Shown: positions 5,470-44,144 of the stretch, in pieces
How positions within the stretch are numbered: position 1 is the first letter of the stretch
How the letters are laid out: the number at the start of each line of letters is the position of its first letter
Origin: an uncultured Acidobacteriota bacterium
Lineage (GTDB): Bacteria > Acidobacteriota > UBA6911 > RPQK01 > JAPXNP01
Assembly (NCBI GenBank): GCA_963777605.1
Contig: CAVZRV010000016.1
Span: 1 to 44,647 of the forward strand
Length of the DNA: 44,647 bases
Reading direction: 5' to 3'
Notes under the pieces: model-generated
Databases searched by the model: none
Seen by the model: the letters and a program-made list of their open reading frames with translations, nothing else
Told to the model about the DNA's origin: nothing
Made by a program: the position numbers and the translations under genes

Positions 5470-6684
5470 ATGGAGAATTCTCGGATAGGTGTCAAACCCT
5501 CGACGAAAAGAGTTGTGCTGACTACGTGCAGCGCCTGGACGTTGCGTCAGGGGGAGCTCCGTGGTCCGCTGAAGAAATCGGCGACGGAAACATCAACTTG
5601 GTCTTCCGTGTCCGGAGGGCGGGAGCGGAGAATCTCTAGTCGTCAAACAGGCGTTGCCCTATGTCCGATGTGTTGGAGAGGAGTGGCCCCTGGACCTGAG
5701 TCGCGCGGTTCGCGAGGGGAAGGCACTTCAAATCCAGGACGAATTGGCTCCGGGTCTTGTTCCAAAGGTTCATCGAATCGACGAAGAGATGGCTCTCATT
5801 GTTATGGAAGATCTGTCTGGCCTAGGAGTGATGCGTGCCGGCACGATCCGAATGAAGAAATATCCACGTTTTGCGGATCACATCTCGACGTTCATGGCCA
5901 ATGTGCTCTTCTACACTTCCGACCTGCATAGAGATCCAAAAGAAAAGAAGCGACTGGTAAAGGAGTTCATTAACCCAGATCTGTGTCGTATCACAGAGGA
6001 CCTGATCTTTACCGATCCCTACTACGATTGCCCGCGCAACAACGTGAGTTCTGCCTTGAGACCCTACCTCGAAAGAGTGTTTTGGAAGAAGAGTTGTTTG
6101 CGGTTGGAAGCCTCGAAGTTCAAATACAAGTTCCTCACGGCTGCAGAGAGTCTGGTTCATGGTGACCTGCACACTGGGTCGATCTTCGCAGACGAGACCC
6201 GGACGAAGGCCTTCGATCCCGAGTTTGCCTTCTTCGGGCCAATTGCGTTCGATCCCGGGCTTCTGATCGGAATCTCCTCATCAACTATGTCTCCTGGAAC
6301 GGCAAGGACAATCCGGCCGAAGAGATACGGGACTATCGAAAGTACTTGTTGGGAACGATCAACGAGACTTACCGGATGTTCGACCAGAAGTTCAAAGTGA
6401 ATTGGGAGAAGGACGCTCGCGACAGCATGACCACTGTGGTTGGCTTTCGCGAGACTTTCATGCGGAACCTGTTTGTGGACACCATCGGCTATGCAGGTAT
6501 CGTCATGATCCGGCGCGTGCATGGTCTCGCGCACAATGTCGATGTCGATGGGATTGCAGACCTTGAAAGGCGTAGAGAGGTCCAAACGCTGATCCTCGAA
6601 TTGGGTGAAGATCTGGTCATGAATCGGCACTCATTCTCGGATATCGAGGATGTGACGGCATTTGCGGGGCGGAGGATTGCCTGA
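5470..6684 (+). CDS. mtnK: S-methyl-5-thioribose (or 5-deoxyribose) kinase (frameshifted)
   Basis: Motifs EIGDGNINLVFRV, KQALPYVRCVGEEWPL, NPDLCRITEDLIFTDPY, LVHGDLHTGSIF, DPEFAFFGPIAFD and IRRVHGLAHNVD lie across ORFs 5457..5639, 5654..6400 and 6346..6684. Confidence 0.93.
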
Positions 6685-6698
6685 TCAATCCGTCCCGG

Positions 6699-7781
6699 GT
6701 GCTCCAGTTCGAGAGAGAACTCAGAAATGGAGAGCATGTGTCAGGAGGGCTGAAACCAATCGAGTGGAGGGATGGAACACTCTATGTCTTGAACCAACTC
6801 GAGCTTCCCGGACACGTCAAGTACAATCCCAGGAACTCCGTAGCAGAGGTGTTCCGGGCGATTCGGGACATGGAACTGCGCGGGGCGCCGCTGATCGGGA
6901 TTGCAGCCGCGTATGGCCTTTGCCTCGGCGTCCGGGATCTGGGAGAGATCGGTCATGCCAAATTCATGCGAACCTTGAGAGGGCATGCCGAGTTTCTCGC
7001 CTCAGCTCGTCCCACCGGAGCCAATCTCTCCTGGGTCCTTGATCGAATGCTTACGAAGGTGAACCGGCTCGAATCCCTCTCGGTTTGCGAAAAGAGGAGA
7101 GTCTTGGAGGCGGAGGCGAACCGGATCTTTCAGGAGGATGCGGAGATCTGCAAGGCGATCGGTGAGAACTTCCTGACCATGATCGGCGACGGGGTGAGTC
7201 TGCTGACTCACTGCAACGCGGGCAGCCTTGCGACAGCCGCCTACGGAACTGCAACCGCTCCCATGTTTCTGGCGAAGGAGAGAGGGTGGAGCATGAGAGT
7301 CTACGTCGATGAGACCCGTCCCTATTTGCAGGGCGCCCGACTTACGACTCTGGAGCTACAGTCGGCGGGTATTGACGTCACACTGATCTGCGACAGTGCG
7401 GCGGGAGTGGTGCTTTCTCAGGGGAAAGTCGACGCGGTGATCACGGGAACGGATCGCGTAGCGGCAAACGGGGACGTGGCCAACAAAGTAGGTACGTTGA
7501 GCCTGGCGATCCTCGCCCACTACTTTAAGGTCCCTTTCTACGTGGCGGCTCCGACACCGACCATCGACATGGATACCCCTTCGGGAAAACAGATCCCGAT
7601 CGAAGAGCGGAAGACCGAGGAGGTGACGCGATGCGGCGGAATCCAGACGGCGCCGGAAGGCACACGAGCCTACAATCCTGCGTTCGACGTCACTCCTCAC
7701 GAACTGGTTACCGCAATTGTCACGGAGAGAGGCATTGTGACGCCGCCCTATTCGCAGTCCTTGCCGGAACTGTTCGATTGA
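6699..7781 (+). CDS. mtnA: S-methyl-5-thioribose-1-phosphate isomerase (copy 1, intact; true start may be ~40 bp downstream)
   Basis: LRGAPLIG, ARPTGANL, LTHCNAGSLATAAYGTA, DETRPYLQGARLT, GTDRVAANGDVANKVGT and YNPAFDVTP. It lies directly downstream of mtnK. Confidence 0.95.
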   Translation: MLQFERELRNGEHVSGGLKPIEWRDGTLYVLNQLELPGHVKYNPRNSVAEVFRAIRDMELRGAPLIGIAAAYGLCLGVRDLGEIGHAKFMRTLRGHAEFLASARPTGANLSWVLDRMLTKVNRLESLSVCEKRRVLEAEANRIFQEDAEICKAIGENFLTMIGDGVSLLTHCNAGSLATAAYGTATAPMFLAKERGWSMRVYVDETRPYLQGARLTTLELQSAGIDVTLICDSAAGVVLSQGKVDAVITGTDRVAANGDVANKVGTLSLAILAHYFKVPFYVAAPTPTIDMDTPSGKQIPIEERKTEEVTRCGGIQTAPEGTRAYNPAFDVTPHELVTAIVTERGIVTPPYSQSLPELFD

Positions 7782-8054
7782 CAACGGCGGATCGCTGACT
7801 CGCCCAAGCTTGAGCGAGCGGCTGCTGTGCCCTCGGAGTTTGAACGGGTGAAAGTGGTACCACGACATGCACCTGATTATCTGGGTAGTATACTGCTACC
7901 TTGACGCTTGCCATTGAGATTTTTTTGGGGGGGGCGGTTCCCCGAAAGTTGGACGGGAAAGGGTCTGGGGTGCTGGCAGAGGCCGGAATGTGGGTTGAGG
8001 ATTGCCTTGGAAGACAGACTCCATTGTCCGGGTCCTGAAGACGGAGTGAGAACC

Positions 8055-8945
8055 ATGGAAGAGGAAACAACATTGGCGGGTGGAGTGGCCCCTTCGGTCT
8101 CGAGCTTGAAAGCTCTGTCCCAAATTCGCAGTCACCTTCCCGGTCTAGCTCGGGCGGAGTCGGACGTTGCCTCCTGGGTTCTTCAGAACAGCCAGCAGAT
8201 TGTCCGCTTGTCCATGGCGCAGGTTGCCCGCGAATGCGGTGTCAGCGACACGACCGTGCTACGATTTTGCCGAGCGGTGGGTTTTCACGGGTATACCGAT
8301 TTGAAGTTTGCCGTAGTGCGGGACATGGCATCTCCGACACAGGTCATTCACGATGATCTGGCCGCGGACGACACCCCGCCTACCGTTGCCCGCAAGGTCT
8401 TTCTGGCGAATATCCAGGCCCTTAAGGACACGATGGAGGTTCTTGACCTGGAGGGATTTGAGAAAGCAGTCGACATGCTTGAGGGAGCAAAGTCGAGTCT
8501 GATCCTGCTGGTCGGAGTGGGGACTTCGGGGCCGATCGTGCAGTCGATGTACAATTTCTTGTTTCGTCTGGGGCTCAACTGCCGCGCCGAGACCGATTCG
8601 TACCTGCAGCTTATGCAAGCCGCTCTCATCCGGCCGGGAGATGTGGTGGTTGGTATTTCCCAATCCGGTAGTTCCAGTGACCCGGTCCTTACGATGGCTG
8701 AAGCAAAAAGGAATGGGGGTCAAACAATATGCATCACCGGGAATGCGCAGTCCCCGATTACGGAGTACGCGGACGTCACATTGTTGAGTGTCTCCAGTGA
8801 AACCCGCTCGGAAACGATCGCCTCGAGGATCGCCCAAAGCACAATTGTGGACGCACTCTACGTCGCCTTGGCCCTTCGGGACATAGAGCGCGCCATTGAA
8901 GGTGAGGGGAAGATCTGGAACGCGACTGCGTTGAAGTCGATCTAG
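8055..8945 (+). CDS. RpiR/MurR family transcriptional regulator (HTH plus SIS domain)
   Basis: HTH LSMAQVARECGVSDTTVLRFCRAVGFHGY and SIS motifs GVGTSG, GISQSG, ITGNAQSPI and SRIAQ. ATG at 8055 follows GGAG. Confidence 0.93.
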   Translation: MEEETTLAGGVAPSVSSLKALSQIRSHLPGLARAESDVASWVLQNSQQIVRLSMAQVARECGVSDTTVLRFCRAVGFHGYTDLKFAVVRDMASPTQVIHDDLAADDTPPTVARKVFLANIQALKDTMEVLDLEGFEKAVDMLEGAKSSLILLVGVGTSGPIVQSMYNFLFRLGLNCRAETDSYLQLMQAALIRPGDVVVGISQSGSSSDPVLTMAEAKRNGGQTICITGNAQSPITEYADVTLLSVSSETRSETIASRIAQSTIVDALYVALALRDIERAIEGEGKIWNATALKSI

Positions 8946-9254: not shown

Positions 9255-9720
9255 AGGGACGGGCCTCGCGATTGTAGGCTTGGATGAAATCGATCAATTT
9301 GGCCACCAACTATTCTCTGGACTAGAGGATGCCACGGTGGACGATCTTGCGGGTCAGATTCCCGAACCAGATCTCAATCTGATTCAATCAACTGGCATGG
9401 GTCGGGTTGTAATGAAGATTCAGACGGTTGTTTTGGCGGACCCAGTCGCTGGTTTCCCAGCTGCGATGAAACGAGCCATTGTCGACGATCACGTGCAGCT
9501 CCCGACCCGGATAGCGTCGCAGAACGTCCTGCTAAGGCGAGGCTCGACGCCTTCACCGTGTTTCTCGAAAACGGTTTTTCGGCGGTCAGCACGATTTCAG
9601 GGGCACGTCCTGGCATGCGCACAGCATGGCTCACGCTCGGAAATTAAGTAAATCTACTTCAGCAAGGCGACACTAGACGAAATTAATGCGACAGGGAGCG
9701 CCAAGGAAGGGGACGGACGA

Positions 9721-10843
9721 TTGAAGGTCGAGGGGCAGCACTTTCGAACAATTTGGCGGAAGAAGGACGACCCGAGCGTTGTTCAAATCATCGATCAGCG
9801 TCACCTGCCGCATCGGTTTGTAATTGAAGACCTGAGAACCGTAGATGAGGTCGTCGTCGCAATCTCTGAGATGCATGTTCGGGGGGCGGGGCTGATCGGA
9901 GCAGCCGCAGGTTACGGAATGTACCTGGGCGGGCTGACTTCACCACGGAGTTCGGACGATGCGTTTCTGGAGGCGATGGACTCCAGTGCCCGCAGACTCA
10001 AGGAGAGCCGGCCGACCGCCGTGAATCTGGAGTGGGCCGTGAACCGGCAGGTCGGAGTGCTGAACAGGGTTCTGGGCATCGATGGGATGATCCACGCTCT
10101 GCGGCAAACAGCCGACAGGATTGCAGACGAGGATTCGGAGTACTGCCGGCGAATCGGAGAACACGGCCTCAGGATCATTGAGGAGATCCGCTCGAAGAAG
10201 GGGGGCGAGCGCGTCAACATCCTCACTCACTGCAACGCGGGATGGCTCGCCTTTGTTGACTATAAAACAGCCACTGCCCCGATCTACGAGGCGCATGACG
10301 CCGGAATCCGGGTTCACGTTTCGGGTCGACGAGACGCGACCCCGGAATCAGGGCGCGGGCCTGACGGCCTGGGAACTGGGCCAACACGGCGTCCCTCACA
10401 CCGTGATCGTCGACAATGCCGGCGGCCACCTGATGCAGCATGGACGGGTGGACATGGTCATCGGGAACGGATCGAACCCTGTATACGGGCGACGTAGCCA
10501 ACAAGATCAGGCACCTACCTGAAGGCGCTGGCCGCTCGGAGACAACAACATCCCCTTCTACGTCGCCCTGCCCTCCTCGTCTTTCGACTGGGTCTTGCGC
10601 GATGGAGTGAAAGAAATCCCGATCGAAGAGCGGAGTGAGTCGGAAGTGAAATGGGTGGACGGGCTTGTCCGAGACAAGGTCGAATCTGTGCTGGTGACCC
10701 CGGCCTCCAGTCCCGCAGCCAACTATGCCTTCGACGTGACCCCGGCCCGTCTGGTGACGGGGCTGATCACGGAGCGCGGGATCTGCCGAGCGTCTGAGGA
10801 AGGCATCCTGGGACTGTACCCCGAGATGGCAGGCCGGAGGTGA
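9721..10843 (+). CDS. mtnA: S-methyl-5-thioribose-1-phosphate isomerase (copy 2, frameshifted)
   Basis: [62 protein letters not shown] and [20 protein letters not shown] lie across ORFs 9721..10497, 10121..10522 and 10595..10843. Confidence 0.92.
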
Positions 10844-10899
10844 CCGCCGAGGTTCCTTCGAATCCCCTTGAAGTGTCTTGGTCTGGCCCGCTACGCTGC

Positions 10900-11125
10900 C
10901 GAGAAGGTTTCGACGCGAAACAGTTTCCCTTGCTGACAGAAAGGGCACATCGACAGATCGAGGCCGGCCGGCGTCTCGAAACCGCTGCCGGGAGTCGGCT
11001 CGCCATTGAGCCTGCCGCGACGACCTGTTGCTCCGCGAGTAAACGACGGTAAACGAAGAGGTTTTCTGCTCGATGGCGATTGGCCAGGAATCCATAGCAG
11101 CGAATCTGAACGAAGCCTCGCGGCT
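10900..11125 (-). pseudogene. C-terminal fragment of an IS91-like (Y2) transposase
   Basis: [18 protein letters not shown] matches the LPxGFxRIRHYGFLAN motif. A frameshifted CPxCxxG-like tail follows. It sits downstream of an integrase fragment, as in integrase-plus-IS91-like elements. Confidence 0.7.
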
Positions 11126-11149
11126 CGGCGAGTCCCTCCAACTCCAGAT

Positions 11150-11520: not shown

Positions 11521-11615
11521 GATGTTCAAGTCGCAGTTCAACGTCACCCGGTAAGAAAGCGCAGGGCACAAACCGTCACATTGACAAACTCGACGAAAGG
11601 CCCTGCTGCGCGATA

Positions 11616-12703: not shown

Positions 12704-12804
12704 TTCTTCCTCCAGTTCTGCGACCCCTTAAGATCGAAGACAGATTGGGTTTTGAGGATTCAAACCTGACAAGAGAGAGTCCAACTGATGTCGGGTGACC
12801 CGTC

Positions 12805-13824: not shown

Positions 13825-13925
13825 TTCACGCCCTCCCCAATTGATTAAGAATAACGGTTAGTGGTGAGCGGCGACCCTGGAATTCGCAGACTGGACAATG
13901 TCCGCGCCAGGAAGATGCCCCATAC

Positions 13926-15041: not shown

Positions 15042-15217
15042 CTCAACCCCCTCTTAGTGCGGTTCCGCCACCGTCCCAACAGCCGTTGTCTCCCGGTTCT
15101 GCAAAATCCGGCTGCATTGACGGAAGCTGGATCCAATGATCCCGCCGAGTATACCATCGGAAGAATAGCACCACCACCACCACGGAAACTTTTCTGTACT
15201 GTTACCACAAAAAGTTC

Positions 15218-15300: not shown

Positions 15301-18300
15301 ATGAGAAGGCCGCAGTTTCTGTTTTTGCTTGTTGCTCTCACCGTTCTTTGTTTGCTGCCCCGGTTCGCCACTGCTCAGTCGACCACCGGAGACATCTTGG
15401 GGGCGGTTACTGACCAACAGGGGAGTTTTATTCCGGGCGTCGAACTGACGTTGCGGAATGTGGAGACGAATGCGGCCCGCACGGCATTAAGTGATGACTT
15501 GGGCCGCTATATTTTCCCGCGAATGGACCCGGGAACGTATGAGCTGACGGCCGTACTTCAAGGTTTTAAGACGTTCGTGGCATCCGATATTGCGCTTCTG
15601 GTAGGAACGAGGCGTACCGTCAATGTGCCACTCAGTATAGGCGAGGTCAGCACGGCGATTGAGGTAAGTGCGGCTGCCGACGTTGTGCAGTCGGACGACG
15701 TTGCCATGACCAGTGTTCTCACAGCGAAAGAAATCGTCGAGTTGCCGCTCAACGGACGGAACTTCATCCAGCTTGCCCAGCTGTCTCCCGGTGTTATGCA
15801 AATTCACTCTGCCATCTCACCGGTGAGTTCTTGGACAAGCCGATCCGACATGTCGGTGGTGGTCGCTGGCCTGCGGGAGACCGACACCAGCTATCTCCTG
15901 GACGGTATCGAGACGCGTTCCCCTCGTTGGGGTGGTTCGGGATTTCGACCCTCAATTGACACAATTCAGGAGTTCAATGTTCAACGGAATGCTTTCACGG
16001 CCGACCAGGGTTGGGGAACAACGGTTGTGAACACGATCATCAAATCAGGGACCAACGAGTTCCACGGTTCCCTCTTCGAGTTCCTCCGGAATGACAAGCT
16101 GAACGCGAGGAACTTCTTTGACGGTTCGGAGAAACCACGATATAAGCAAAATCAGTTTGGTGGGACCGTCGGGGGCCCGGTGATTCGAGACAAGGTCTTC
16201 TTCTTCGGAAGCTATGAAGGCTATCGGTCGCGACTGGCAAACACCTACCTGGGCCGAGTTCCCTCACCCGAAAACCTGGCGGGCCAGTTCGACCATGAGA
16301 TTATTGATCCTACGACCGGAGCACCCTTCCCGGATAATCGGATACCCGTCGACCGATTTGACGCTGTAATGGTAAATGTCGCGCCGTTCTACCCGGCGCC
16401 GAATCGCGAGTTTGATCCGAGTCTAAATTATGGCCGCGAGGGACTCCAGCCTAGCGACCGTGACGAGATCCATGCCAAGGTCGATATCGACCTTACAGAG
16501 TCGGACCGGATGTTCGCTAAGTATTCTTGGGTGGATGAACCCCTGACCTCACCTTCGCTTTTCGAGGGATACGGTTTGAATAGGCCTCTTGGAGACCAGA
16601 ATGTCAGTCTCGGGTACACTCACTTCTTTGGTCCCAGTTTCGTTAATGAGTTCCGGCTCGGCTACAATCGCAATCTGGACTACAGTGTTCCGGAGGCAGC
16701 ATACGGGGAAGATCTTGCGAGACAGATCGGTCTGCAGAACACTACCACCAAAGCCGCCAACTTTGCACTTCCCGGTTTCGGTCCGCTCAATTATTCGGGA
16801 ATCGGCCAAGGCTACGCCCAAACTCAGGAGACAGTCGACAACCTGTTCCAGGTCAACGAAAACGTCTCCTATGTCAAGGGAGATCATAGCCTTAAGTTCG
16901 GCATGGATCTACGGCCTCGTCGCTTCGCCATAACCAACGACTTTCCTAGCGCTCCCTCTTTTAGCTTCGTGGGGTACTATACGGGAGATTCCATGGCCGA
17001 CTTCATGTTGGGACTGTTTGATTTCACCAATCAGTCTATCGGCGACAGCTCCGGAAGCTTCCGGAACACAGATTTCTCACTATATGGCCAAGATAACTGG
17101 AAGCTTACCTCGAATTTGAATGTCTATTTTGGTTTACGATACGAGTATTTTCAGCCGATGTCGGAAGAGAACAATAAACTCAACTATCTCGACCTCAATA
17201 CGCTGAAATACGTTGATGTGCAGGGCGCCCTATTCGAACCTGATCGCAACAACTTCGCACCACGAATCGGTCTTGCGTATAGTCCCTCTTCGAAGACAGT
17301 CATCCGAGCAGGATATGGAATTTTTTACGACCTGATTGGTCTCAATGAAACTCAGTTTTGGGGGGTTTCTAACCCACCCAACACTCAGATTGCGTCCTTC
17401 AACAATACTCGACCGACACCAACATATCAGGTGAACGGGATGTATCCTTCACCTGAATTTATCCCGAGCACATCTCCCAACACAACGTCACCTTGGAATC
17501 GAACTCCGTATGTTTCCCAGTACAATGTAAACGTTCAGAGGAATGTGGCCGGTTTTCTCATTGAGGCGGGTTATGTTGGTTCAACGGGTGTGAAGTTGAA
17601 TCGCCGTTTCATGATGAATATGCCACCACCCAAGCCGGGAGTTCCTATGGAGGACAGGCGGCCGTTTCCGGGTTTGGAGACATTCTGACTTCGATGAACA
17701 ATGGGTGGTCTAACTACAATGGTCTTAACGTTCGGGTTGATAGACCGCTTCGGAACGGTTTCGCGTTACTCACATCCTACACACTTGGAAAGGCCCTTGA
17801 CATCGGAGGCCCGGATGAATACGTTCACAGAGATATTACCGGGACGATCAAGGAGTTGCGGGGTCCCGCTTCCTTGGATTCGAGGCATCGGTTGGTAGTT
17901 AGCTGCATTTACGATCTCCCGTTCGGCCGGGGTCGAAGCTACGGCGGGGACATGTCTGGACCGGTGAATGCTATTATAAATGGTTGGCAACTCAGTGGAA
18001 TCGCCACGTTTATGAGTGGCCAGGCGAAAACGCCGAGTATCGGAGGTGACTTGGCTCGCATTGGCGGACGCCGCCTGCAGCCTGCTACGCGGATTGGACC
18101 TGGTAACAGTGACGCTCTGAAAGATGATATCCGAAAGCAGCCCACGCTATTCCCCTTCTTCGATGTTACCGACTTCGTTATTCCACCCGCGGAGACACTG
18201 GGCGATGGTGGAAGGGGAACGATCATCGGACCTGGGGTCAATAACTGGGATTTCAGCCTTCAGAGGTATTTCAGCCTAAAGGAAGCGATGTCGTTACAGT

Positions 18301-18440
18301 TCCGCGCGGAGTTCTTCAACGCGTTCAACCACGCTCAGTTTGTGGGCTTGGGCATGACGGCGAATGATCCGAACTTCGGCCGGATTACGTCAGCGAGAAA
18401 TCCGAGATATATCCAGTTTGGGCTCAAACTCAACTTCTAG
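15301..18440 (+). CDS. TonB-dependent receptor with N-terminal carboxypeptidase-regulatory-like domain (Oar type; one frameshift near 17690)
   Basis: Signal peptide, ILGAVTDQQGSFIPG, LPLNGRNFIQLAQLSPG, KSGTNEFHGSLFEFLRND, QDNWK, NNFAPRIG and C-terminal QFRAEFFNAFNH...PRYIQFGLKLNF. Confidence 0.93.
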
Positions 18441-18596: not shown

Positions 18597-19597
18597 ATGT
18601 TTGTGTTGGACAGTTACTTATGGGCTGTGGTGTTCTGCTTGATCACCATGCTCTGCTGGGGATCGTGGGCGAATACGCAGAAGCTGGCAGCCAGAGACTG
18701 GCGTTTCGAGCTCTTTTACTGGGATTATGCAATCGGCGTCCTCCTTGTCTCAACGTTGTTCGCTTTGACACTCGGAAGTGTCGGCGCTGGAGGACGGGGG
18801 TTTCTTGTTGATTTGGCGCAGGCAGATCTTTCGAATCTCGTCTCCGCTGCTCTCGGCGGTGTTATTTTCAATGCGGCCAATATCCTGCTGGTGGCTTCGA
18901 TTGCGATTGCCGGCATGGCGGTGGCTTTCCAGGTAGGAATCGGTTTGGCTCTGGTTCTTGGGGTCCTCATCAACTACCTCGCCACTCCTCTGGGGAATCC
19001 GTTAGTTCTGTTTTTTGGGGTTGCCTTGGTGACGGCGGCCATCGTTTTAGATGCAATCGCCTACCGGAGACTGCCCAAAGAGACTGCGGATAGTGGCTCC
19101 GAGGGGCTTGTGTTGGCGGTTTTGTGCGGGATCCTGGCTGGTTTCTTCTATCGTTTTGTAGCAGCTTCGATGTCGCTCAACTTCAATAACCTTGAGCCAG
19201 GAAAGCTGGGACCGTACTCCGCCGTCTTTATGTTCTCGCTGGGACTTTTGGGCAGTAATCTGCTCTTCAATACGATCATTATGAAGAGACCTTTCGTAGG
19301 TCGTCCCGGTTTCTTTCGCCGACTACTTCGGAGGATCGGCGCCTCTCCACGCCGTCAGGTATTAGGTGGCATCATCTGGGGAATCGGCATGATGTTCAGC
19401 ATCATCGCCTCCGGGCAGGCGGGATTTGCCATCTCGTACGGATTGGGCCAGGGGGCAACCATGGTTGCGCGCTCTGGGGCGTGTTCGTGTGGAAGGAATT
19501 CAGGGAGGCTCCCCGCGGCACGAACCGGTTGATCGTATTGATGTTCGCCCTCTTCATATTGGGCCTTGGTCTCATCATCGTCTCGCGACAAACCTAG
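18597..19597 (+). CDS. GRP/ureide-permease-like DMT-superfamily sugar (ribose-type) transporter (frameshifted near the 3' end)
   Basis: ITMLCWGSWANTQKL, FELFYWDY, about 10 hydrophobic helices, AISYGLGQGATMVA, then WGVFVWKEF...IIVSRQT* at 19597. Confidence 0.85.
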
Positions 19598-19910: not shown

Positions 19911-20924
19911 ATGACCCGATTTCCGAAGTGGGGCTGCGATAGTAGCATTCTCGATAATGGCCTTCACGAGCCCTCATCTGTACGGAGGCTCGGTCCGGCT
20001 TATTCTTTGACACCGACATGGGAAATGATATCGACGATGCCTTGGCCCTTGGGGTGATTCACGCCCTTGAAAGTCGCGGAGAATGTCACTTGTTGGGAGT
20101 CGATTACCTGACAAAAGAGCACCCGATGGGTGCTCCCTTTGTCGACGCCATCAATACCTTTTACGGACGTGGCGGCATCCCGATTGGTGTCGTTCACCAT
20201 GGCAAGGGCCGCCAGAGTCTGCGTACTTGCAGGCAGGATTGGCGAAGGATGCGGGCGGTGAGTATATCTATCCACACGACCTCGTCGAGAACCAAGATGC
20301 GGAAGATGCCGTGACACTTTTGCGGCGCCTTCTGGCCGGATCGGAGGACGGCTCGGTCGTCATCGTCCAGGTGGGTTTCAGCACGAATCTCGCGGCTCTT
20401 CTGGAAACGAGCCCCGACGCGATCAGCCCGCTGTCGGGGCCGGATCTGGTCCGCTGAAGGTCCGCATGCTGTCCGCAATGGCCGGCAATTTCTTGGAAGA
20501 GGTTCCAGAATTCAATGTCTTCGTCGACCGTGATTCGGCCGCAAAGGTGTTCTCGACGTGGCCCACAGAGATCGTATTCAGCGGCTTTGAGATCGGTCAT
20601 GCGATCCCCTATCCAGCGGTCAGCATCGAAGAAGACTTCGGCTATGTGAAGAACCATCCCATCGCAGACGCCTATCGGGCCTACAGTTCGATGCCCTACG
20701 ACCGACCAACGTGGGATTTGACCTCCGTGCTGTTCGCCGTCCGTCCAAATCGCGGCTACTTCGGATTCTCCAGACCGGGAATAGTCAGTGTCGACCAGCA
20801 AGGACGCACCAGCTTTCAAGAAAACGAAACAGGTAAACATCGCCACCTGACCGTTTCGGAACGCCAGAAGGAAACGACGCTGGAAGCGCTGATTCAGCTG
20901 ACGAGCCAGCCGCCATGCAGATAG
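19911..20924 (+). CDS. Secreted IUNH-family nucleoside hydrolase NH3 (frameshifted)
   Basis: RBS then ATG 19911. FDTDMGNDIDDALAL, VQVGFSTNLAALL, MAGNF, EFNVFVD, SGFEIG and RPTWDLTSVLFAVRP. Confidence 0.85.
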
Positions 20925-22979: not shown

Positions 22980-24187
22980 ATGAGGGTGTTTCTGGTCGTA
23001 CTCGATTCTGTTGGGATTGGTGCTGCTGCGGACGCTGAGGAATATGGGGACGAAGGAGCCAATACCCTCGCACATACGGCCCAGGCCGCAGGTTCGCTCC
23101 GCGTACCAACGCTCGAGACCCTTGGGCTTGGCAGGGCCGCCGCCGCCGTCCCCGAGTGCCTAGCGGTTCAGGGAGTTTCCGCATCCGTTCAGCCTCTTGC
23201 CTCTTTCGGCGCGATGGAAGAGGTCTCCCAAGGAAAAGACACCGTTACTGGGCATTGGGAAATAGCAGGTCTACTCCTCAGACCTGGTTTCACGGTCTTT
23301 CGAAAGGAGTCTCCATCATTTCCGGAACAACTCACTGCAATGTTTGAGGCGGAGACAGGTCGGCGAATCATCGGTAACTGTGCAGCGAGTGGGACGGCGA
23401 TCATTGAGGAGTTGGGCGAACCTCAAATGCGCGAAGGCTCCTGGATTGTTTACACAAGTGGCGATTCTGTCTTCCAGATTGCTTCGCATGAGGGAGTAAT
23501 ACCTCTGGAGGAACTTTATCAGGCGTGTTCCACTGCGAGGAGACTCTGTGATGAGTATCGTGTCGGGCGTATCATTGCTCGGCCTTTCCTGGGGAGGCCG
23601 GGAACTTCAGACGCACGGAGATGACGGGATTTTCCGTTCCCTCCGCCGAGGACTACGATTCTTATCGTCTGAAGGAACATGGAATCCATGTGAGTGTGGG
23701 CAAGATTGATGATATTTTCTGCGGTCGAGGCATTTCTCAGTCGATACACGTCCTCAACAACTGTGAAGCCCAATCAGCGATACTTGAACTGGCGAACCAG
23801 CTCGACCACGGACTTGTGTTCGCTAACCTCATCGACTTTGACATGTTGTACGGTCACCGGAGGAACCCAGTCGGCTACGCCCGGGCGTTGGAAGAAGCCG
23901 ATCTATTTTTTGGACAGCTGATCGCCGCCATGAGAGGATCGGACATCCTGATTATCACCGCCGATCATGGAAATGATCCAACATTCGAAGGTTGCGATCA
24001 CACCAGAGAATACGTTCCCATCCTGCTCTATGGCCCCGGCCTACCGGCAAAGGATCTTGGAATTCGCAAAGGCTTCTATGATGTGGCGCAAACGCTGGCT
24101 CATCTTTTCCAGATTTCACCTATGCCTCACGGGCAGTCATTCGTGGAGAAGAATGCCGGGAACGTGAGCGAGCAAGATCCTCCTTGA
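22980..24187 (+). CDS. deoB: Phosphopentomutase (frameshifted near 23620)
   Basis: VVLDSVGIG, GKDTVTGHWEI, ASGTAII, IVYTSGDSVFQIASHE, GRIIARPF, FANLIDFDMLYGHRRN, ITADHGNDPT and DHTREYVP. Confidence 0.95.
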
Positions 24188-24404: not shown

Positions 24405-25536
24405 TCACAGTCCATTCAGGATGCTGAGGAAATGGCGACTACTCTCGACGAGGTCGAACTCCGCCGCTGCACGCCTCGACCGACAATCAAGACAAAGTCC
24501 TTCTCATAGACTCGCACCAGATCGGCAGCCCGATCGGTCGTCATACCGCCGCCCGGTGCCGGAAAGATGGTCGCAACGTCACCCATCCCGCACCTACATC
24601 CCTCAACAATCTCGGCGCATTCCTCTCGAGTGAACGAAAAGCGGCCGCCGTAGTTCGGAAAGATCGTCATGTCCCGCCCGCGAGGCGCATGATCTGGCCG
24701 TATAGGGCGAAGTGGCTCAATCCGTTCTCAGGTGTTGTGACGAAGCTTCCCCAGAAAGAAGGGTGGGCCATTATGGGCAAAGCCAGCGAGTCATCTTGCG
24801 CAAGGACTCGCATAGCATCGATGCCCACAAGTCCCGGACAAATCAGCAGGGCGCCCGCGCCGGCGGCCTTGGCCCGACGCGCGAGAAGCGTAACCTGATC
24901 GCTCGGCCCCGTCACATTCGGTGCATAGAGGCATCGACTTCCATGTTCTTGATTGACCTTCGCCACAGCCTCGACGCAGCGCGCAACGCGCTCCTCAAAT
25001 GGGGCGAACACTTGGTCGGTGAGCCCGTGATCATCCTTGACAATGTCGATCCCACCCCGCGCAAACTGACTGGCTTGCTCCGCGAGCTCGATGGGCGAGA
25101 GGCCCATCGGTTTCAGCACAGCACAGACCAGGGGCCTGTCGGCGATGCCGAGATGGTTGCGCAGGCCACGTACTCCGTAGCGCGGCCCACGAAAGCGGGC
25201 CAACAGGCTGCCGGGCAAGTTGAACCGTTCCACTTTGATGCCTGCCTTGAGACTGATGTTTCCGAAAATAACATTTAGCAGTTGAACGAGGTCGCCCGCC
25301 GCCGTCTCAACTGCATAGCTGATGACGGCCCGGAATCTGGATTGACCGGCTGGCTGAAAGTCTTCCACGCGGCCGACCACGTGGTCTTTTATGAATCCAT
25401 CTGGAATGAGGTCGCTCGGAAACTCAACCGTTTGCTCGTAGCAAATGTCCTTGGCCTTCTTGGTCGCCAGCCGGTTGTCGCCCGTGAGGAGATAGGAAAC
25501 CGTGAAACGCTCGCTGCCAAACAACCTTTCGTTCAT
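24405..25536 (-). CDS. rlp: RuBisCO-like protein (form IV, KDDH type; probable 5-methylthioribulose-1-P 1,3-isomerase; frameshifted near 24670 and 24470)
   Basis: EQTVEFP, QLLNVIFGNISL, GPRYGVRGLR, LKPMGLS, GGIDIVKDDHGLTDQ, MAHPS, IFPNYGGRFSF and PAPGGGMT. These motifs match the R. rubrum-type RLP. Confidence 0.92.
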
Positions 25537-25543
25537 AGCGGCT

Positions 25544-26549
25544 CTACAATGCCTCCACTCGCGCGATGTTGTGGACCGGTTCGATTCGCACCCGCTCGAG
25601 ATCCTCCTCTCGAATTCCGAGCCTCATGCCAATCATCTCTTCGATATGGAGCACAAGGGCCATGGCATCGATTCCGTACTTCCTCATCAGGTAGGGCCGG
25701 CTTCCACCGTGGGCGAACGAATCGCGGAGCCCAACGCGAACGAGGCGTTTCCGACTCCGTTCGTCGCCATCACCTCCGCCACCTCCGTTCCGAGTCCACC
25801 CACGATTGAATGGTTTTCCAATGTTATGACACCGTAGCGCGGTTTGGAAACCGCCTCGAGGATCACCGGATTCGTGAATGGCTTATGCGTCGATACGTGC
25901 AAGTGGTGGATGGAGACGCCCTTCCCACCTAGAATGGCGATCGCGCGCAATGCCTCTTCGGTGCAGATCCCGGCCGTAATGAGGGTTACGTCCTGGCCCT
26001 GATGCAAGATACGCGGATGGTTCACCACGAGTGGTTCCTCGACAGGGAACAACCTGGGCATCTCACCGCGGAGCATTCGCACGTATACCGGGCCGGGTAG
26101 AGCGAAGACCGCGTCGAGCACGGTTTCTACTTCCGTTGCATCCCCAGTCTCGAACACCGTCATATTTGGTATTGTGCGCATGACGGCAACATCCTCGATT
26201 GCCTGATGAGTCGCACCGCCTGGGGTCGTGATTCCGGGCAGGAATCCGAAAAACTTAACGGGGAGATTCGAATAGGCAACCGAACTCACAATCTGGTTCA
26301 AGGCCTGCCGGTAGATGAACACGGCGAAGGTGTGTACGAACGGGATGTATCCTTCGCGGGCGAGCCCGCCTGCAAGACTGACCATATTCTGCTCGGCGAC
26401 TCCCATCGAGAAGAATCGGTCCGGGTAGGTATCCTTAAACGTATCGATCTGGTGGAACCCGTCAAATCGGCCGAGAGAACGACGACTTCCGGCTTGTCCT
26501 TCGCCCAGCCCACGAGATTCTTGGCGTGAACCCTTGAAACGATCTCCAT
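25544..26549 (-). CDS. Transketolase-like enzyme, C-terminal (pyrimidine-binding) subunit (frameshifted)
   Basis: VLSADLTGS, DRFFSMGVAEQNMVSLAGGLA, TFAVF, GGATHQAIED, PVYVRMLRG and TLENHSIVGGLG. It ends ...ARVEAL* 8 bp before the rlp start. Confidence 0.9.
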
Positions 26550-26552
26550 CGC

Positions 26553-27497
26553 CTATTCTCCCGTCTCCAGGTTCTTCATCACTGACTCATAAAAGTCGCG
26601 ATATTCCTCTCGTTCTTCCGAGGAGGCAAAGCGCACATAGTGAAGCTTAGGTCGTCGCTTCTCAAGAAGTGGAACACCTCTACAGGGATCCGTGTAACAA
26701 AGGACCACAAGCGGGCGACCGTCAGGCGCCAACTGCGATGGCTCAACAAGGGCTCTGATGTCGTGTCCGTCCACCCCAAACACCCGGCCGCCGAACGCCT
26801 CGATCCGCTTCGTGAGAGGTTCGATCTGCATGACGTTCTCTGTCCTTCCATCGCACTGCTGACCGTTGATGTCGACATAAATACCGAGATTGTCGAGATG
26901 GTAATGCGACAGGGTTTGCAGGCTCTCCCAGGTCTGACCCTCCTGGAACTCCCCATCAGACAGAAATACCCAAATACGTCCCTGTTGTCCTCTTGACTTG
27001 CGCGCGAGCGCAATACCGGCAGCTTGACTCAGGGTCTGAGCGAGAGCCCCCCCCATCATCTCGAAACCGGGCGAATGTTCCGCGCCGATCATTTCGACCG
27101 TGCTACCGTCCTGATTGAACTGGTCGAGGCTGGCCGGATCCATCCGTCCAACCTCGATGAGCGTGGAGTAGAGAACCAGAGCGTAATGGGCCGGGCTCAA
27201 GTAGAAACGATCGAACTCCGGATCGCGGGCGCCGTTGTAGGCTCCGCCCGCTTTATAGCCGATTTGGGAGGCTGATGGAACCCCTTGGAAGGGCGGAGGA
27301 ACCATCGGAGCGGTGCTCCTGCCCAGACGCGCGATCTTCAGGTAGATGCTTGCGAGAATTTCAGCCGAGGAACAGGCTTGGCTCAGGTAACCGCCGTTGT
27401 GGAGGATGGTGTGCTCCATCACCCGTCGACGGATCCCCCCCGCGGCTCGTTTGATCTCATTGAGAACCCGTGATTCGATGCCAACTCCAGCACCCAT
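26553..27497 (-). CDS. Transketolase-like enzyme, N-terminal (ThDP-binding) subunit
   Basis: DRFYLSPAHY, ThDP motif SDGEFQEGQTWE...DINGQQ, VDGHDI and KLHY. It stops 4 bp before the C-subunit start. Confidence 0.9.
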   Translation of the reverse strand: MGAGVGIESRVLNEIKRAAGGIRRRVMEHTILHNGGYLSQACSSAEILASIYLKIARLGRSTAPMVPPPFQGVPSASQIGYKAGGAYNGARDPEFDRFYLSPAHYALVLYSTLIEVGRMDPASLDQFNQDGSTVEMIGAEHSPGFEMMGGALAQTLSQAAGIALARKSRGQQGRIWVFLSDGEFQEGQTWESLQTLSHYHLDNLGIYVDINGQQCDGRTENVMQIEPLTKRIEAFGGRVFGVDGHDIRALVEPSQLAPDGRPLVVLCYTDPCRGVPLLEKRRPKLHYVRFASSEEREEYRDFYESVMKNLETGE

Positions 27498-27936
27498 CAG
27501 CCTTCTCCAATTCCGGGTCTTGCCGACCGCTCCGAGGAGAGGCGGATCGCAGGCCTAATGAGCAAACGCCTCGTGAGTGGTCCTGCATAGGATAACGCAG
27601 AAACGTCGATCCGTCACATCAGGGTTGAGAGAATTCCGCGGGCACGCCACTCCCGCAGATCGAGGGAGTGCAACCGCGATCGACGAGCCCCACGAACCCG
27701 GCAGTTACTCGTCGGACGGGTGATGATGTAAACTGGAAGGGGTGGTTTCAACACGCGGCTACTCACGACATCCTGGAACGTGAGAGTGGTAACCCAATTT
27801 GATCTTACGCTCACGCAATCCTGGTCGACACCGTGTCCCGATCAAGACGAAGGACACCCCCTTAAGCAGACCAGGATGGGTGTTTGCTATGTCAAGAGAG
27901 ATTCTTGTCCCAATGTTAAGCCAGGAGAAGTAGAGA

Positions 27937-29364: not shown

Positions 29365-30725
29365 TCAGCCGATCCCGTACTCGGCAGGCAGAATGCGTCC
29401 TGCAACGGAGGCGTCGGCAAGCATCTTCTCGATGATTCGGTCTTCGGTTTCGGGAAGTCTTGCGAACTCGTCGCACATTCGATCCAGCCAGGGACGCTCT
29501 CGCTCGGGCAGACGCAGCCGCCCCGAACCCAAAGCCGTCTTCAATTCCTGCAGGCTGGCGCCGACGGCGGCCAGCGTCTGGAGGTAGGGATCGCTGAGCC
29601 GGGCGATCTGTTCGGATATTCGGAGGACGACGTCCGGTTTCAGCAGCCAGGCCTGGGGATCCAGCGGGGCATCGGAATCGCTCAGCCAGTCCCTCAACAG
29701 CCTGGCCTGAGTAGGTGACGAGGAAAGCGCCGTGTTCATCAGGCGGCAGTCGTAGACAAGCTGCTCCAAACACATCCGAGGAGCCCGCCCGCTCAGCATC
29801 TGAACATTCTGAACCGATTCGTTCGACCAGCAATCGCAGACGGCCTGGCTGACGTTGCCCAGCGGGCTAAGATGCGCGCAAGCGGCGGTCCGGCCCTCCA
29901 TAGAGATCGGGATGCCCGCGATCGCCTTGAGATAGGGACCCTCGTAGGCACAGTCCTTGCTCGGCCCGGCGCCCCGATGCGGTACGGCACCAGGCTCCTT
30001 GGAACCGACGCGACCCGGACGATCGCCGCAAAAACCGGGGGATCACCTCCGTTTCCCCAGCACCATCGCCGTGTTGGCAAACCCGCAAGCCGTATCTCCG
30101 GAAGGCACGATGTGCTGGGACCGGAAGCGTACGAGGTGGTGCCAGAGGGATCCATATCGCGGGCTCCGAGAACTCCGAGCGTGAAGACGATCGGCCAGAT
30201 CCGCCTCGACCAGGGCGTCGTCGCAAACCTCCTTCCCTCCGGTGGACTCCACGGCGAGGAGGTCGGCCCCCCAGCTTCCCGCTTTGTTGAAGAGCTCGAG
30301 CATATGACCCCAGTGTGCGTTCGAACGCATTCGCGGAGGCGTCCGAACTCCCGCGCGTCGTCGGTGTCAGCCGCAGGGCGGTCCACAGGCCGTATCTTGT
30401 GAAATTTCGCCATCCGTTTCGAGACAGCCCGGAAATCTCCAATCCCCACTCGGGCCGGTCGGTCATGGGAGCCAGCGTTTCGAACTCAACCAGCAGTTCC
30501 GGCGTCTCGAGCTCCACGGCCCTCTCCAGTACCGACCGGATCATCTCTTCGTACTGTCGCCGCACTTCGGCCCAGGTCTCGTCACAATGTCGATCGACGG
30601 AGGGGTGAAGTTGATTTCGGGGACCACTCGTCCACCGCCGATCAGCAGGCCGGTTCCGCAATGGACCGGCTCGGAGCGCTGCCGAAGATGAAGTCCTCCA
30701 GACGTTCGATAGCAAGTCCGGTCAT
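29365..30725 (-). CDS. mtaB: MtaB-family (methanol:corrinoid-type) methyltransferase (many frameshifts)
   Basis: DFIFGSAP, IGGGRVVPEINFT, LVEFE, ADLLAVESTGGKE, GDTACGFANTAM, GPSKDCAYEG, ISMEGRTAACAHLS.LGN, DCWSNESV and YDCRLMN. The Zn-ligand Glu/Cys/Cys motifs of MtaB are present. Confidence 0.9.
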
Positions 30726-30756
30726 TTTTCCTCCGCGCCAACTCCGCCCAGAACCA

Positions 30757-31376
30757 CTACAATGCGGGTTCGAGCAGCCGTTCGACGACTTGAACGGCTT
30801 CATCGGCATCCTCTCCAAACCCGTCTGCCCCGATCTCCGGGCAGCGCCGGTGACTGGGGCCCCGCCCACGACGATCCTGACGCCGGGCCGGTCCGAAGTC
30901 GGTCCACGACGGTCTTCATGGAGGGCATCGTCGTAGTGAACAGCGCAACGATACAGAGCGTTGTGAAGCCCCGATCCACGGCTGGGAGGCTTCTCAACCG
31001 CACAGTCCACCCCCAGGTCTTCAACCTCGAAGCCGGCGCCTTTGAGCATGACGACAACGAGGTTCTTCCCAATGTCGTGCAGATCGCCTTTCACCGTGCC
31101 GATGGCGACCTTTGCCCGAATCCGTGTCCCTTTCCTTGCAAGCGCCGGTTCGAGCAGGTCGAGGCCGGCCTGCATGGCCGGGCGGCGATCAGCATTTCCG
31201 GGACATAGATCTCCCCCGCGAGAATCGGCGGCCGACTTCCCGCATGGCTGGAATCATGGTCTTGTCGAGCAGTCCGAGGGATCACCATCTTCCCTCAGGT
31301 TCTGATCGACGATCTGAACGGTGGACTTCCGGTTCCCCGCGATGACTGCGTCGAAGAGCTCACTAATCCGAGCCAA
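30757..31376 (-). CDS. Corrinoid-binding protein (MtaC/MtbC-like; frameshifted)
   Basis: GEIYVPEMLIAAR, IGTVKGDLHDIGKNLV (DxHxxG B12 motif), GFEVEDLGVD, LFTTTM and VVGGAPVT. TTG start at 31376 follows GGAGG. Confidence 0.9.
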
Positions 31377-32971: not shown

Positions 32972-33067
32972 CAGGTTGCCCACGAACCATGAAAAGCGGT
33001 ACTATCTTGTGTGGATCAAGACTTGGCCAACACGGACTCTCGGTCCCACTTTTCGTTCGGAGGCACC

Positions 33068-34176
33068 ATGAATCGCCTTCTTCTGACACTCCCGTTGTTA
33101 CTTGTTCAGGGCTTCCTGACCGTGACGCTTGCCCAGCCTCATAGGGTAATCTTCGATACGGAGTTCAAGGGCCACTTCCGCCGCAGGATGATGCACCTTG
33201 CCCTTCTCCTGGCGCTCAACTCCCCGGAGATCGAGGTTCTGGGGATCACGACCGTGGCAGGAAACAAGAGCCGTGAGCAGGCCACCGCCGACGCCCTCAA
33301 GGTCCTTGAGGGCGTCGGTTGCGAAGAAACGCCGGTCTATCCCGGTGCAAACATGCCACTTATCCACGAAGTTTCGGAGTTCTCCTTCAAGCAACATGGC
33401 GAGTGGTGGAAGGACGGACCCCCAGATCCCCCTCTTGGCGAATTGGCCAGAAACAAGACCTGAAGTGAGAACTGCCGTCGATTTCATCGTCCGGACGGTA
33501 CTGGATAATCGGGACGAGATCACCATCGTGGCCATCGGACCTCTGACCAATATTGCTATGGCGATTCGCCAAGACCCTGACTTCGCCATGGCTGTAAAGA
33601 GTCTATATATAATGGGAGGAGCAGTCGCTTCACTGCCGGATGGTGCCAGCAACGTGACGCCCAATGCCGAATTCAATTTCTGGGTTGATCCCGAGGCCGC
33701 TCGCATCGTCCTACGGTCTGGCATTCCAATCGAACTGTCCCCGTTGAATGTCTCACGAAAGACTAGATTCTCTAAGGAGGACTTCGAAAGGATTGTGCGC
33801 GTCTCTAATCCCAGTACTCAGTTGCTGCGGGAGACGATGACGGCGCAATTCCAGCGGGAAGAAGCTATGTCCTCTCATTACCTAATGTATGATCAGGTTG
33901 CGGTAGCCAGTCTTCATCGATCCGTCTTTGGTTATGACCAAGGAATTATATGTTGATGTCGATATTAATCAAGGAGTCAATTACGGTGTTTCAGTTGGTG
34001 GAACCGAGGTGTGGCCAGGAGCAGAAGGCGCGCAGAGGATCCGAGTTCAGTATGACTTGAATTCGAATAGATTCATTAATCTTTTTGTCGACCGTATCTT
34101 TGACGAGTGGAAGAATTGGGACACATTGATCGTGTTCACGACCGCTAGAGATGGTGTGGAGCTCTATTATATTTGA
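33068..34176 (+). CDS. Secreted IUNH-family nucleoside hydrolase NH4 (frameshifted)
   Basis: Signal peptide MNRLLLTLPLLLVQGFLTVTLA, VIFDT..PPQDD, GITTVAGN, AIGPLTNIAMA, MGGA, NVTPNAEFNFWVDPEAA, PLNV and MYDQVAVA. Confidence 0.9.
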
Positions 34177-44136: not shown

Positions 44137-44144
44137 GACTGGGT

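Follow-up and report, generated by a model that had tools for sequence, protein, structure and literature searches.

To our knowledge, bacteria have three known outlets for 5'-methylthioadenosine (MTA) downstream of the isomerase MtnA, i.e., the oxygen-dependent universal pathway, an isoprenoid shunt that uses a RuBisCO-like protein (RLP) and a cupin, and the aldolase-based dihydroxyacetone phosphate (DHAP) shunt. For the DeepYkr RLP of the MTA-isoprenoid shunt (MtnP, MtnA, DeepYkr RLP and cupin), present in Rhodospirillum rubrum and Rhodopseudomonas palustris, the accessible portion of PMC5893883 reports that 5-methylthioribulose-1-P is converted into 1-methylthio-xylulose-5-P and 1-methylthio-ribulose-5-P in a ratio of 3:1, and that a cupin methylsulfurylase acts after it. 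This agrees with the isomerization to 1-methylthio-xylulose-5-P that an earlier note on the DNA analysed here had ascribed to the R. rubrum enzyme. That DNA is contig CAVZRV010000016.1 of assembly GCA_963777605.1, from an uncultured Acidobacteriota bacterium; the whole stretch of 44,647 nucleotides is called the window. In it, the gene of a KDDH-type RLP (rlp) follows the genes of the two subunits of a split transketolase-like enzyme (tktN and tktC). The best reading of this operon is that it belongs to a horizontally spread module with the full form mtnK-mtnA-tktN-tktC-rlp, and it is proposed, with moderate confidence and from sequence and gene context, that a thiamine diphosphate (ThDP) enzyme would replace the cupin and act on the product of the RLP.

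The locus shares with the MTA-isoprenoid shunt the KDDH-type RLP and mtnA. It differs in that the split transketolase-like enzyme occupies the place of the cupin, in that entry would be via MtnK and not MtnP, and in that the expected products are glyceraldehyde-3-P and a two-carbon (C2) unit instead of 1-deoxy-xylulose-5-P (DXP). The DHAP shunt (MtnK or MtnP, MtnA and the class II aldolase Ald2) has the same first two enzymes and follows the same logic, since a C5 sugar phosphate is split to a triose phosphate and a (methylthio-)C2 unit; however, in the pathway proposed here the split would come after the RLP isomerization, would be carried out with ThDP and not by a metal aldolase, and would yield glyceraldehyde-3-P and not DHAP. 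The third relative is the canonical split transketolase of Carboxydothermus hydrogenoformans (6yak/6yaj), which has the same two-subunit build and the same domains, and whose cofactor residues are kept in the enzyme encoded here.

tktN, tktC and rlp form a real three-gene operon. The genes are co-oriented, and their coordinates (Table 1) confirm the gaps of less than 10 bp that had been noticed earlier, with 3 nt between the stop of tktN and the start of tktC, and 7 nt between the stop of tktC and the start of rlp. To survey this arrangement from the RLP side, one genome per species was scanned with an alignment of 16 RLPs; at least 600 stretches matched, of which 583 could be confirmed, and the analysis covered the best 80. 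In 50 of these 80 RLP loci, tktN and tktC genes 56-76% identical to those of the window are located directly upstream on the same strand (TK-type loci), and among the 30 others, 12 are not judgeable as their upstream flank is shorter than 2 kb. The 50 TK-type loci belong to 13 named phyla, i.e., Chloroflexota (12), Bacillota (9), Spirochaetota (8), Pseudomonadota (4), Nitrospirota (3), Planctomycetota (3), Myxococcota (2) and six more with one locus each, while three loci have no assigned phylum. Cultured bacteria that carry the module include Alkalispirochaeta alkalica DSM 8900 (L008), Chloroflexus sp. MS-G (L022) and Alicyclobacillus sp. ALC3 (L061). Counted from the tktC stop, the first possible start of rlp lies at a median distance of -1 nt in the TK-type loci, where overlaps of 4 nt and 1 nt are frequent; the three genes are probably translationally coupled. 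The N and C parts are fused in two of the TK-type enzymes. An apparent fusion of tktC with the RLP in genome G315 (an open frame of 704 aa) was discarded as a stop-to-stop artefact of GC-rich sequence, the two genes being abutting and separate. From the transketolase side, metagenomes were scanned with a tktN alignment and the patterns E[ML]IGAEHS and E[FCL][QH]xGQ[TVF]WE; 593 stretches matched, the best 80 were analysed, and 55 of them had at least 1600 bp downstream and could be tested. An RLP at least 40% identical comes right after tktC in 42 of the 55 testable tktN loci, and one more locus (L142) has an RLP-like match at 37%. The neighbourhood from which the earlier note had started is therefore conserved in both surveys, and the linkage between RLP and transketolase is far beyond chance.

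The RLP of the window is predicted by homology to be a DeepYkr-type 5-methylthioribulose-1-P 1,3-isomerase (EC 5.3.3.23). Among PDB entries, the window fragment is closest to 3qfw (E 1.8e-51), which we take to be the R. palustris RLP1-type protein, followed by 4nas (E 3.9e-42), 2zvi (E 8.6e-40) and 2qyg (E 4.9e-27); in this ranking the MtnW-type enolases come second, and the Photo-type RLPs and true RuBisCO after them. A full-length homologue that is 64% identical to the window RLP (P0005) matches 3qfw with an E-value of 3.7e-82, versus 4.4e-55 for the MtnW 2zvi. The motifs KDDH and FPNYGGRF are common to 3qfw and the window RLP; the MtnW proteins 2zvi and 2oek have KDDE. The residues K171, D172, D173 and H174 are invariant in 16 RLP homologues. 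Homologues have about 380 residues and are 58-65% identical; some of them carry the JGI label S-methyl-5-thioribulose 1-phosphate isomerase, and the RLPs studied here have a loop of six residues that is missing from 3qfw. The RLP passes no NCBIfam model, and its scores with the MtnW and OiaX models are far below their cut-offs; with 3qfw as the nearest structure, the earlier assignment to the R. rubrum/DeepYkr type, and not to an apionate type, is upheld. The genomic company of the RLP points in the same direction: mtnK and mtnA are present in the window, 16 of the 80 RLP loci contain mtnA and 13 contain mtnK (13 and 11, respectively, among the 50 TK-type loci), and the order mtnK-mtnA-tktN-tktC-rlp appears in several loci, e.g., L020, L022, L033, L051 and L061.

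Another aspect of the RLP loci is the enzyme that accompanies the RLP. A Cupin_2 gene lies near the RLP in four of the 80 loci (L015, L016, L045 and L055), directly upstream of it in L016 and L045. No transketolase-like gene was found in these four loci or in their genomes, where the best match is an ordinary transketolase with 35-38% identity. In two Nitrospirota genomes, where neither gene is found next to the RLP, a fused transketolase-like gene, 61-62% identical, is located about 20-30 kb away, and in three other genomes of this kind the search for such a gene gave no match. Among the loci and genomes examined, none combined the cupin with the transketolase-like gene. In a maximum likelihood tree of 73 RLP rows, with strong support on 16 of its 70 inner branches, the transketolase label requires 17 changes versus a mean of 22.5 after shuffling, and transketolase-linked and cupin-linked RLPs interleave; likewise, the window RLP is 55-57% identical to cupin-linked RLPs and 49-64% identical to transketolase-linked ones. 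The interleaved tree and the similar identities suggest the same RLP function with swapped downstream partners, so the simplest reading of these sequences is a single RLP function that may be followed by two interchangeable enzymes. A gene of the O-acetylhomoserine sulfhydrylase type (PF01053) is present beside the cupin-type locus L055, the TK-type locus L005, and L056, and a weaker match with 32% identity lies just upstream of tktN in L096. These neighbours, few in number, are consistent with the formation of methanethiol in cupin-type and TK-type loci alike.

The best PDB match of both subunits is the split transketolase 6yak/6yaj (with E-values of 2e-32 and 2e-64 for the N and C subunits, respectively), and the domains of a transketolase (EC 2.2.1.1), i.e., Transketolase_N, Transket_pyr and Transketolase_C, are all present; the ESM Atlas gave generic clusters of the "transketolase family protein" only. 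With NF004559, a model of the fused enzyme with a cut-off of 488 that single subunits cannot reach, the N subunit scores 137 bits and the C subunit fragment 141. A DXP synthase was considered and rejected, given that the C subunit reaches 111 bits of the 466 set for TIGR00204 and the N subunit 20.8 of the 21.2 set for PF13292. The active-site residues were counted on HMMER alignments to human transketolase 4kxu and to 6yak/6yaj, and are given in human numbering; as a check, His at 37, 77 and 110 as well as Ser345, Glu366, His416, Asp424, Gln428 and Arg474 fall as expected in 4kxu. In transketolases, the C1 hydroxyl of the donor is held by His110 and His77, the C3 hydroxyl by His37 and His258, the C4 hydroxyl by Asp424, and the phosphate by His416. 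The transketolase-like family departs from its canonical split counterpart at several of these positions. His110 is replaced by Ile, inside the invariant VEMIGAEHSPG, in 46 of 46 rows, and His37 by Tyr in 45 of 46, with one gap; the GDG motif reads SDG (45/46), His416 is Leu within GFLPG (43/43), and Gly occupies the position of Asp424 in a loop that has lost one residue, where GEDG has become a shortened PGG (TPGGATHQ, 43/43). In the numbering of the family, the four residues at the positions of His37, His110, His416 and Asp424 are Tyr37, Ile137, Leu104 and Gly111. In addition, the N subunit has an insert of about 25 residues, and position 77 is His in 30 and Gln in 16 of the 46 rows. On the other hand, the Glu of the ThDP-activating AEQ and the Asp and Asn of the metal motif are conserved, Glu366, Arg474 and the His at 428 show no exchange in any of 43 rows, Ser345 is found in 42 of 43, and His258 is probably kept as an invariant H-Y (46/46); the equivalent of Arg318 may be an R or K close to the N terminus.

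From this pattern, loss of the His110 contact is likely in this family, and the altered pocket would suit a donor whose C1 bears SCH3 or H. A hydrophobic exchange at the equivalent of His110 is the way by which engineers have obtained transketolases for non-hydroxylated donors. Saravanan and co-workers are said to have described in 2017 variants of the Geobacillus transketolase, with His102 and His474 replaced, that accept such donors and mimic DXP synthase. These variants have a hydrophobic residue at the equivalent of human His110 (yeast His103), as does the natural Ile found here; in contrast, they are laboratory mutants used with pyruvate as the donor, while the transketolase-like family keeps the His at 428/473/481. 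If the parallel holds, the family may serve as a biocatalyst.

The proposed pathway, by which the sulfur sugar that remains from the use of S-adenosylmethionine would be recycled, would start from methylthioribose, probably freed from nucleosides by the nucleoside hydrolases of the island, which MtnK would phosphorylate to 5-methylthioribose-1-phosphate; MtnA would convert this compound to 5-methylthioribulose-1-P, and the KDDH-type RLP, as judged by homology, would isomerize it to 1-methylthio-xylulose-5-P. At this point TktN/TktC would replace the cupin methylsulfurylase and cleave the C2-C3 bond, giving glyceraldehyde-3-P and a methylthio-C2 unit bound to ThDP. That a ThDP enzyme acting on the RLP product would open a third branch had been put forward in the earlier note, and this part of its proposal is favoured by the 3qfw-type RLP, the company of mtnK and mtnA, the conserved linkage, the lack of co-occurrence with the cupin, and the lost contacts to the C1 and C4 hydroxyls of the donor; the transfer of the C2 unit to ribose-5-P, also contemplated there, found no support.

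Regarding the fate of the C2 unit, it is tentatively suggested that the split enzyme could be a ThDP C-C/C-S lyase, a sort of "methylthio-phosphoketolase", converting 1-methylthio-xylulose-5-P to glyceraldehyde-3-P, methanethiol and acetyl-ThDP. The enamine would expel methanethiolate, the acetyl group would leave as acetate or acetyl phosphate, and methanethiol would be turned into methionine through O-acetylhomoserine sulfhydrylase. Phosphoketolase and sulfoacetaldehyde acetyltransferase are ThDP enzymes in which acetyl-ThDP is formed upon expulsion of a beta leaving group; the analogy is mechanistic only, the group expelled from the C2 enamine being methanethiolate in the step proposed here. 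The loss of methanethiolate is slightly preferred because a thiolate leaves far better than the hydroxide expelled by phosphoketolase, and because the neighbouring sulfhydrylase would use free methanethiol. Alternatively, the C2 unit might be released as 2-(methylthio)acetaldehyde or transferred to an aldose, and the products from a 5-deoxy analogue would be glyceraldehyde-3-P together with either acetaldehyde or an acetyl unit.

Other neighbours of these genes were also observed. A gene similar to glyceraldehyde-3-phosphate dehydrogenase (Gp_dh_N and Gp_dh_C) lies beside rlp or the transketolase-like gene in L023, L026, L056 (after rlp) and L091 (before tktN), and fits glyceraldehyde-3-P as a product of the pathway. 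Five TK-type loci, i.e., L020 (at +52 after rlp), L052, L021, L044 and L053, encode an aldolase of the DeoC/LacD family of about 296 aa. This family includes the LsrF thiolase, which acts on a phospho-pentanedione, and the aldolase may handle a product of the RLP-transketolase pathway.

Both protein families and the upstream half of the pathway are known, hence the downstream enzyme and its reaction would be what is new. A literature search gave no connection between a transketolase and either an RLP or 1-methylthio-xylulose-5-P, a prior mention in older RLP papers or their supplements being possible. A review of methionine salvage from 2018 and a Chem Rev article from 2026 were among the papers covered. 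The word transketolase is absent from the accessible portions of PMC5893883, PMC10418091, PMC6302742, PMC13474568 and 10.1101/2023.08.10.552779; PMC7895386 and 10.1101/386292 name, in theirs, both an RLP and transketolase, for the Calvin cycle only. If the scheme is correct, the module, present in at least 13 phyla, would be a fourth outlet for MTA downstream of MtnA, the majority of the DeepYkr-like RLPs sampled (50 of 80 loci) would acquire a function, and a natural ThDP reaction that has not been described, with a 1-thio-substituted ketose phosphate as the substrate, would be added to those known. If the enzyme is in fact a lyase, this would be the third RLP-dependent, oxygen-independent route of methionine salvage, recovering sulfur and ATP-linked carbon from MTA, and it would be found widely among bacteria, in Chloroflexota, Spirochaetota, Bacillota and Nitrospirota as well as other phyla.

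Several observations weigh against this interpretation. Thirteen of the 55 testable metagenome loci (counting L142) have no clear RLP, and the members without RLP have as neighbours FGGY and PfkB kinases, a class II aldolase, a HAD hydrolase, a SorC regulator and unrelated genes; in L143 and L153, the order is mtnK-mtnA-tktN-tktC and an RLP is missing within 3-5 kb. Among 301 evenly sampled Chloroflexota genomes, with the RLP threshold set at E 1e-70 or better, the transketolase-like gene was found in seven genomes and the RLP in seven, and both, always adjacent, in three. The four genomes with the RLP alone comprise the cupin genome G062, two with the RLP on short contig pieces, and G297. The four with the transketolase-like gene alone (G080, G117, G129 and G177; loci L167-L170) are small, 2.1-2.4 Mb; in all of them this gene, with almost the same motifs, is the best match to Transketolase_N, the other matches being in open frames of about 670-940 aa, and its gene neighbours are uninformative. 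The enzyme could act there as the housekeeping transketolase, or these genomes could have none. A class II aldolase is encoded in the TK-type loci L009 and L020, which implies that the RLP-transketolase and aldolase pathways need not be alternatives, and the cupin sample consists of four loci only. The regulators of the loci are of the sugar type (RpiR, DeoR and SorC), and no S-adenosylmethionine (SAM), T-box or thiamine pyrophosphate leader was detected with Rfam in the window or in eight Bacillota TK-type loci; these eight gave one tRNA and one signal recognition particle RNA only, and the gathering-threshold scan of the whole window gave 0 matches, none in the presumed promoter region either. 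The regulators of the DHAP shunt of E. coli are also of the sugar type. As for the active site, the alignment at His110 is uncertain by one residue, with no register that puts a His there, and an invariant His (H141), 4-5 residues past this position, might replace His110.

The alternative that survives best, which we regard as unlikely, is that the enzyme has another substrate, e.g., one of the 5-deoxyribose line or another 1-substituted ketose phosphate, sulfur salvage being a side issue. In the deoxy line, the substrate would originate from 5'-deoxyadenosine, and the RLP product 1-deoxy-xylulose-5-P would be split to glyceraldehyde-3-P and acetaldehyde. The lost His110 and the variable His77 suit any donor without a C1 hydroxyl, and the sugar-type regulators, the lack of a SAM riboswitch in the regions scanned, and the sugar kinases and aldolase beside members without RLP all favour this possibility. 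North and co-workers reportedly found in 2020 that enzymes of the MtnK and MtnA type of the DHAP shunt take both methylthio and deoxy sugars, which is also in its favour. Nevertheless, mtnK and mtnA of the window pass curated NCBIfam cut-offs for methylthio enzymes, genes of the sulfhydrylase type are located beside two TK-type loci, and the cupin-linked RLPs, whose methylthio substrate is known, interleave with the transketolase-linked ones on the tree; moreover, methylthio and deoxy substrates are not mutually exclusive.

A still less probable alternative is that of an ordinary split transketolase in a sugar and nucleoside island, which would feed pentose phosphates to central metabolism, its nearness to the RLP being mechanistically meaningless. 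The window indeed has a ribokinase, a phosphopentomutase-like gene and several IU_nuc_hydro genes, the four small Chloroflexota genomes contain the enzyme without an RLP, and the ThDP-activating Glu, the Mg-binding Asp and Asn, Arg474 and Ser345 are all kept. However, no ribokinase or deoB match is conserved at RLP-transketolase loci; in particular, deoB gave no match in 160 other loci, so that the phosphopentomutase-like gene is not found beside the RLP-transketolase genes elsewhere. The genome from which the window comes (G000) has a full-length canonical transketolase at C30:88850, the split enzyme being an extra paralog, and G333 likewise has a canonical transketolase besides the transketolase-like gene. 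The adjacency to the RLP in both surveys and in 13 phyla, the overlapping stop and start codons, the four substrate-contact residues altered throughout the family, and the failure to find the gene in the four cupin-type genomes also disagree with an ordinary transketolase.

As mentioned above, the module has the appearance of being horizontally acquired, with a patchy distribution. The split transketolase-like enzyme was absent from 60 genomes of the same family or order, in which the best matches are 36% identical, and the G+C content is 0.56 in the window versus about 0.59 in the genome.

The condition of the genes in this contig deserves separate consideration. The genes, order, spacing and motifs given in the earlier note were all found again, while the frameshifts and the duplicate status of the contig had been overlooked. 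tktC is spread over three reading frames, with shifts near 26450 and 25750, and tblastn with an intact homologue from L006 gives three pieces in three frames; rlp is spread over two frames, with a shift near 24674, in such a way that both reported motifs, KDDH and IFPNYGGRF, are present in separate frames. Frameshifts also affect many unrelated genes of the window, and the long-ORF cover is 0.72, versus about 0.8-0.9 on the other contigs measured. The window is the entire contig C16 of an assembly of 6.73 Mb in 53 contigs, and over its full length it can be aligned to C31:186719-142164, to which it is 96.8% identical. The differences, spread across the 44.6 kb, consist of 992 mismatches and 374 indel events, and 325 of these indels involve a single base. 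The copy of tktN-tktC-rlp in C31 is also broken, at positions other than those in C16. When contigs from public runs of four studies (X1-X4), mostly 90-99% identical, were aligned to the stretch, each had one extra base at whichever of the three sites it covered, after 24674 in contigs of X1, X2 and X3, after 25750 in those of X1 and X3, and after 26450 in those of X2 and X3; the search of runs for the stretch gave small shares alone, 0.06-0.08. Given that the public contigs carry the extra base at all three sites, the frameshifts are read as 1-base deletions of the assembly, and the breaks in tktC and rlp are most likely assembly errors in genes that are intact in nature. That the operon is instead dead, with tktC and rlp as true pseudogenes of a decaying island, is very improbable: both copies are frameshifted, a second mtnA is truncated beside an integrase and the long-ORF cover is low, but C16 and C31 break at different places, the mostly 1-bp indels run over the whole stretch and its unrelated genes, and close relatives from three studies have the missing base at every one of the three sites.

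Concerning the contig itself, C31 is 528 kb in length and the window is a diverged second copy of one stretch of it, which makes the window a haplotig or strain variant, or else a duplicate left unpolished; this duplication inflates the contamination and duplication figures of the assembly and accounts for the many frameshifted genes. The last 400 bp (44129-44528) match stretches of C30 and C35 with 94-98% identity, a repeat that may mark where the assembler broke the contig.

Table 1. Features of the window, with coordinates on the forward strand numbering and the match or observation that supports each one.
Feature	Coordinates	Strand	Support or remark
tktN, N-terminal (ThDP/PP-domain) subunit of the split transketolase-like enzyme	26553..27497	-	314 aa, intact; PF00456 E 9.8e-17
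tktN family motifs	NGGYLSQ 27398..27378; EMIGAEHSPG 27095..27066; SDGEFQEG 26960..26937	-	conservation judged over 46 rows
tktC, C-terminal (Pyr and C domain) subunit	25544..26549	-	PF02779 E 5.4e-25 and PF02780 E 4.7e-14, middle frame
tktC motifs	AEQNM within 26400..26383; GFLPGITTPGGATHQ 26247..26203	-	
rlp, RuBisCO-like protein of the KDDH (DeepYkr-like) kind	24416..25536	-	PF00016 (RuBisCO_large) E 7.3e-21
rlp motifs	KDDH 25038..25027; IFPNYGGRF 24664..24638	-	
Intergenic stretch 5' of tktN, presumed operon promoter region	27498..27936	-	ORF map
mtnK (S-methyl-5-thioribose kinase)	5573..6684	+	TIGR01767 311.7 bits, cut-off 275
mtnA (S-methyl-5-thioribose-1-phosphate isomerase)	6699..7781	+	intact, 360 aa; NF004326 451.6 bits, cut-off 271; TIGR00512 421.4 bits, cut-off 279
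RpiR/MurR-family regulator (HTH and SIS)	7908..8945	+	NF008458 E 3.5e-59, below its cut-off
Second mtnA-like gene	9652..10522	+	frameshifted, cut short; PF01008 E 2.2e-13
Integrase (tyrosine recombinase, phage integrase family)	10767-11525	-	adjoins the second mtnA; PF00589 E 8.3e-08
Inosine-uridine-type nucleoside hydrolase genes (IU_nuc_hydro)	11928-13857; 19958-20924; 32993-33956; 41098-42341	-; +; +; +	at least 5, several frameshifted
MtaA/CmuA-like uroporphyrinogen decarboxylase (URO-D) protein	13926-15053	-	
TonB-dependent receptor	15301-18440		
Permease	18597-19532		
Phosphopentomutase-like gene (Metalloenzyme family)	22980..24187	+	convergent with rlp, two frames; PF01676 E 2.3e-29
MtaB homolog	29365-30721	-	PF12176, frameshifted
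B12-binding corrinoid protein	30642-31253	-	
Ribokinase	40236-41066		

The island around the operon (Table 1) contains mtnK and two mtnA genes, as had been stated; mtnK, in two frames here (ORFs 5573..6400 and 6166..6684), and the first mtnA pass the NCBIfam cut-offs; the second is a truncated and frameshifted mtnA-like gene. Together with the integrase on the opposite strand, the truncated gene (9652-11525) is a sign of mobile-element activity in the island. Homologues of the RpiR/MurR regulator, 57-65% identical, are present in the RLP loci L044, L053 and L071. The absence from the window of a cupin, a class II aldolase and MtnD, also claimed previously, agrees with the searches: no Aldolase_II gene was found in the window, the three of the genome being on other contigs; acireductone dioxygenase (ARD/MtnD) gave no match in the window or the genome; and tblastn at E 1e-4 with three RLP-linked cupins (from L016, L045 and L055) gave nothing in the window or in the genome, no general Cupin_2 search having been made.

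With its receptor, permease and hydrolases, the island looks built for nucleoside uptake and cleavage, perhaps of MTA or 5'-deoxyadenosine, in replacement of MtnN/MtnP. It also encodes a set of corrinoid methyltransferase components, i.e., the MtaA/CmuA-like protein, the MtaB homologue and the B12-binding protein. Bacterial clusters of MtaA-like corrinoid methyltransferases have been proposed for methionine salvage from methylthio compounds, according to the accessible portion of a 2023 preprint (PMC10418091), and a tie between this set and the methylthio product of the RLP pathway is possible.

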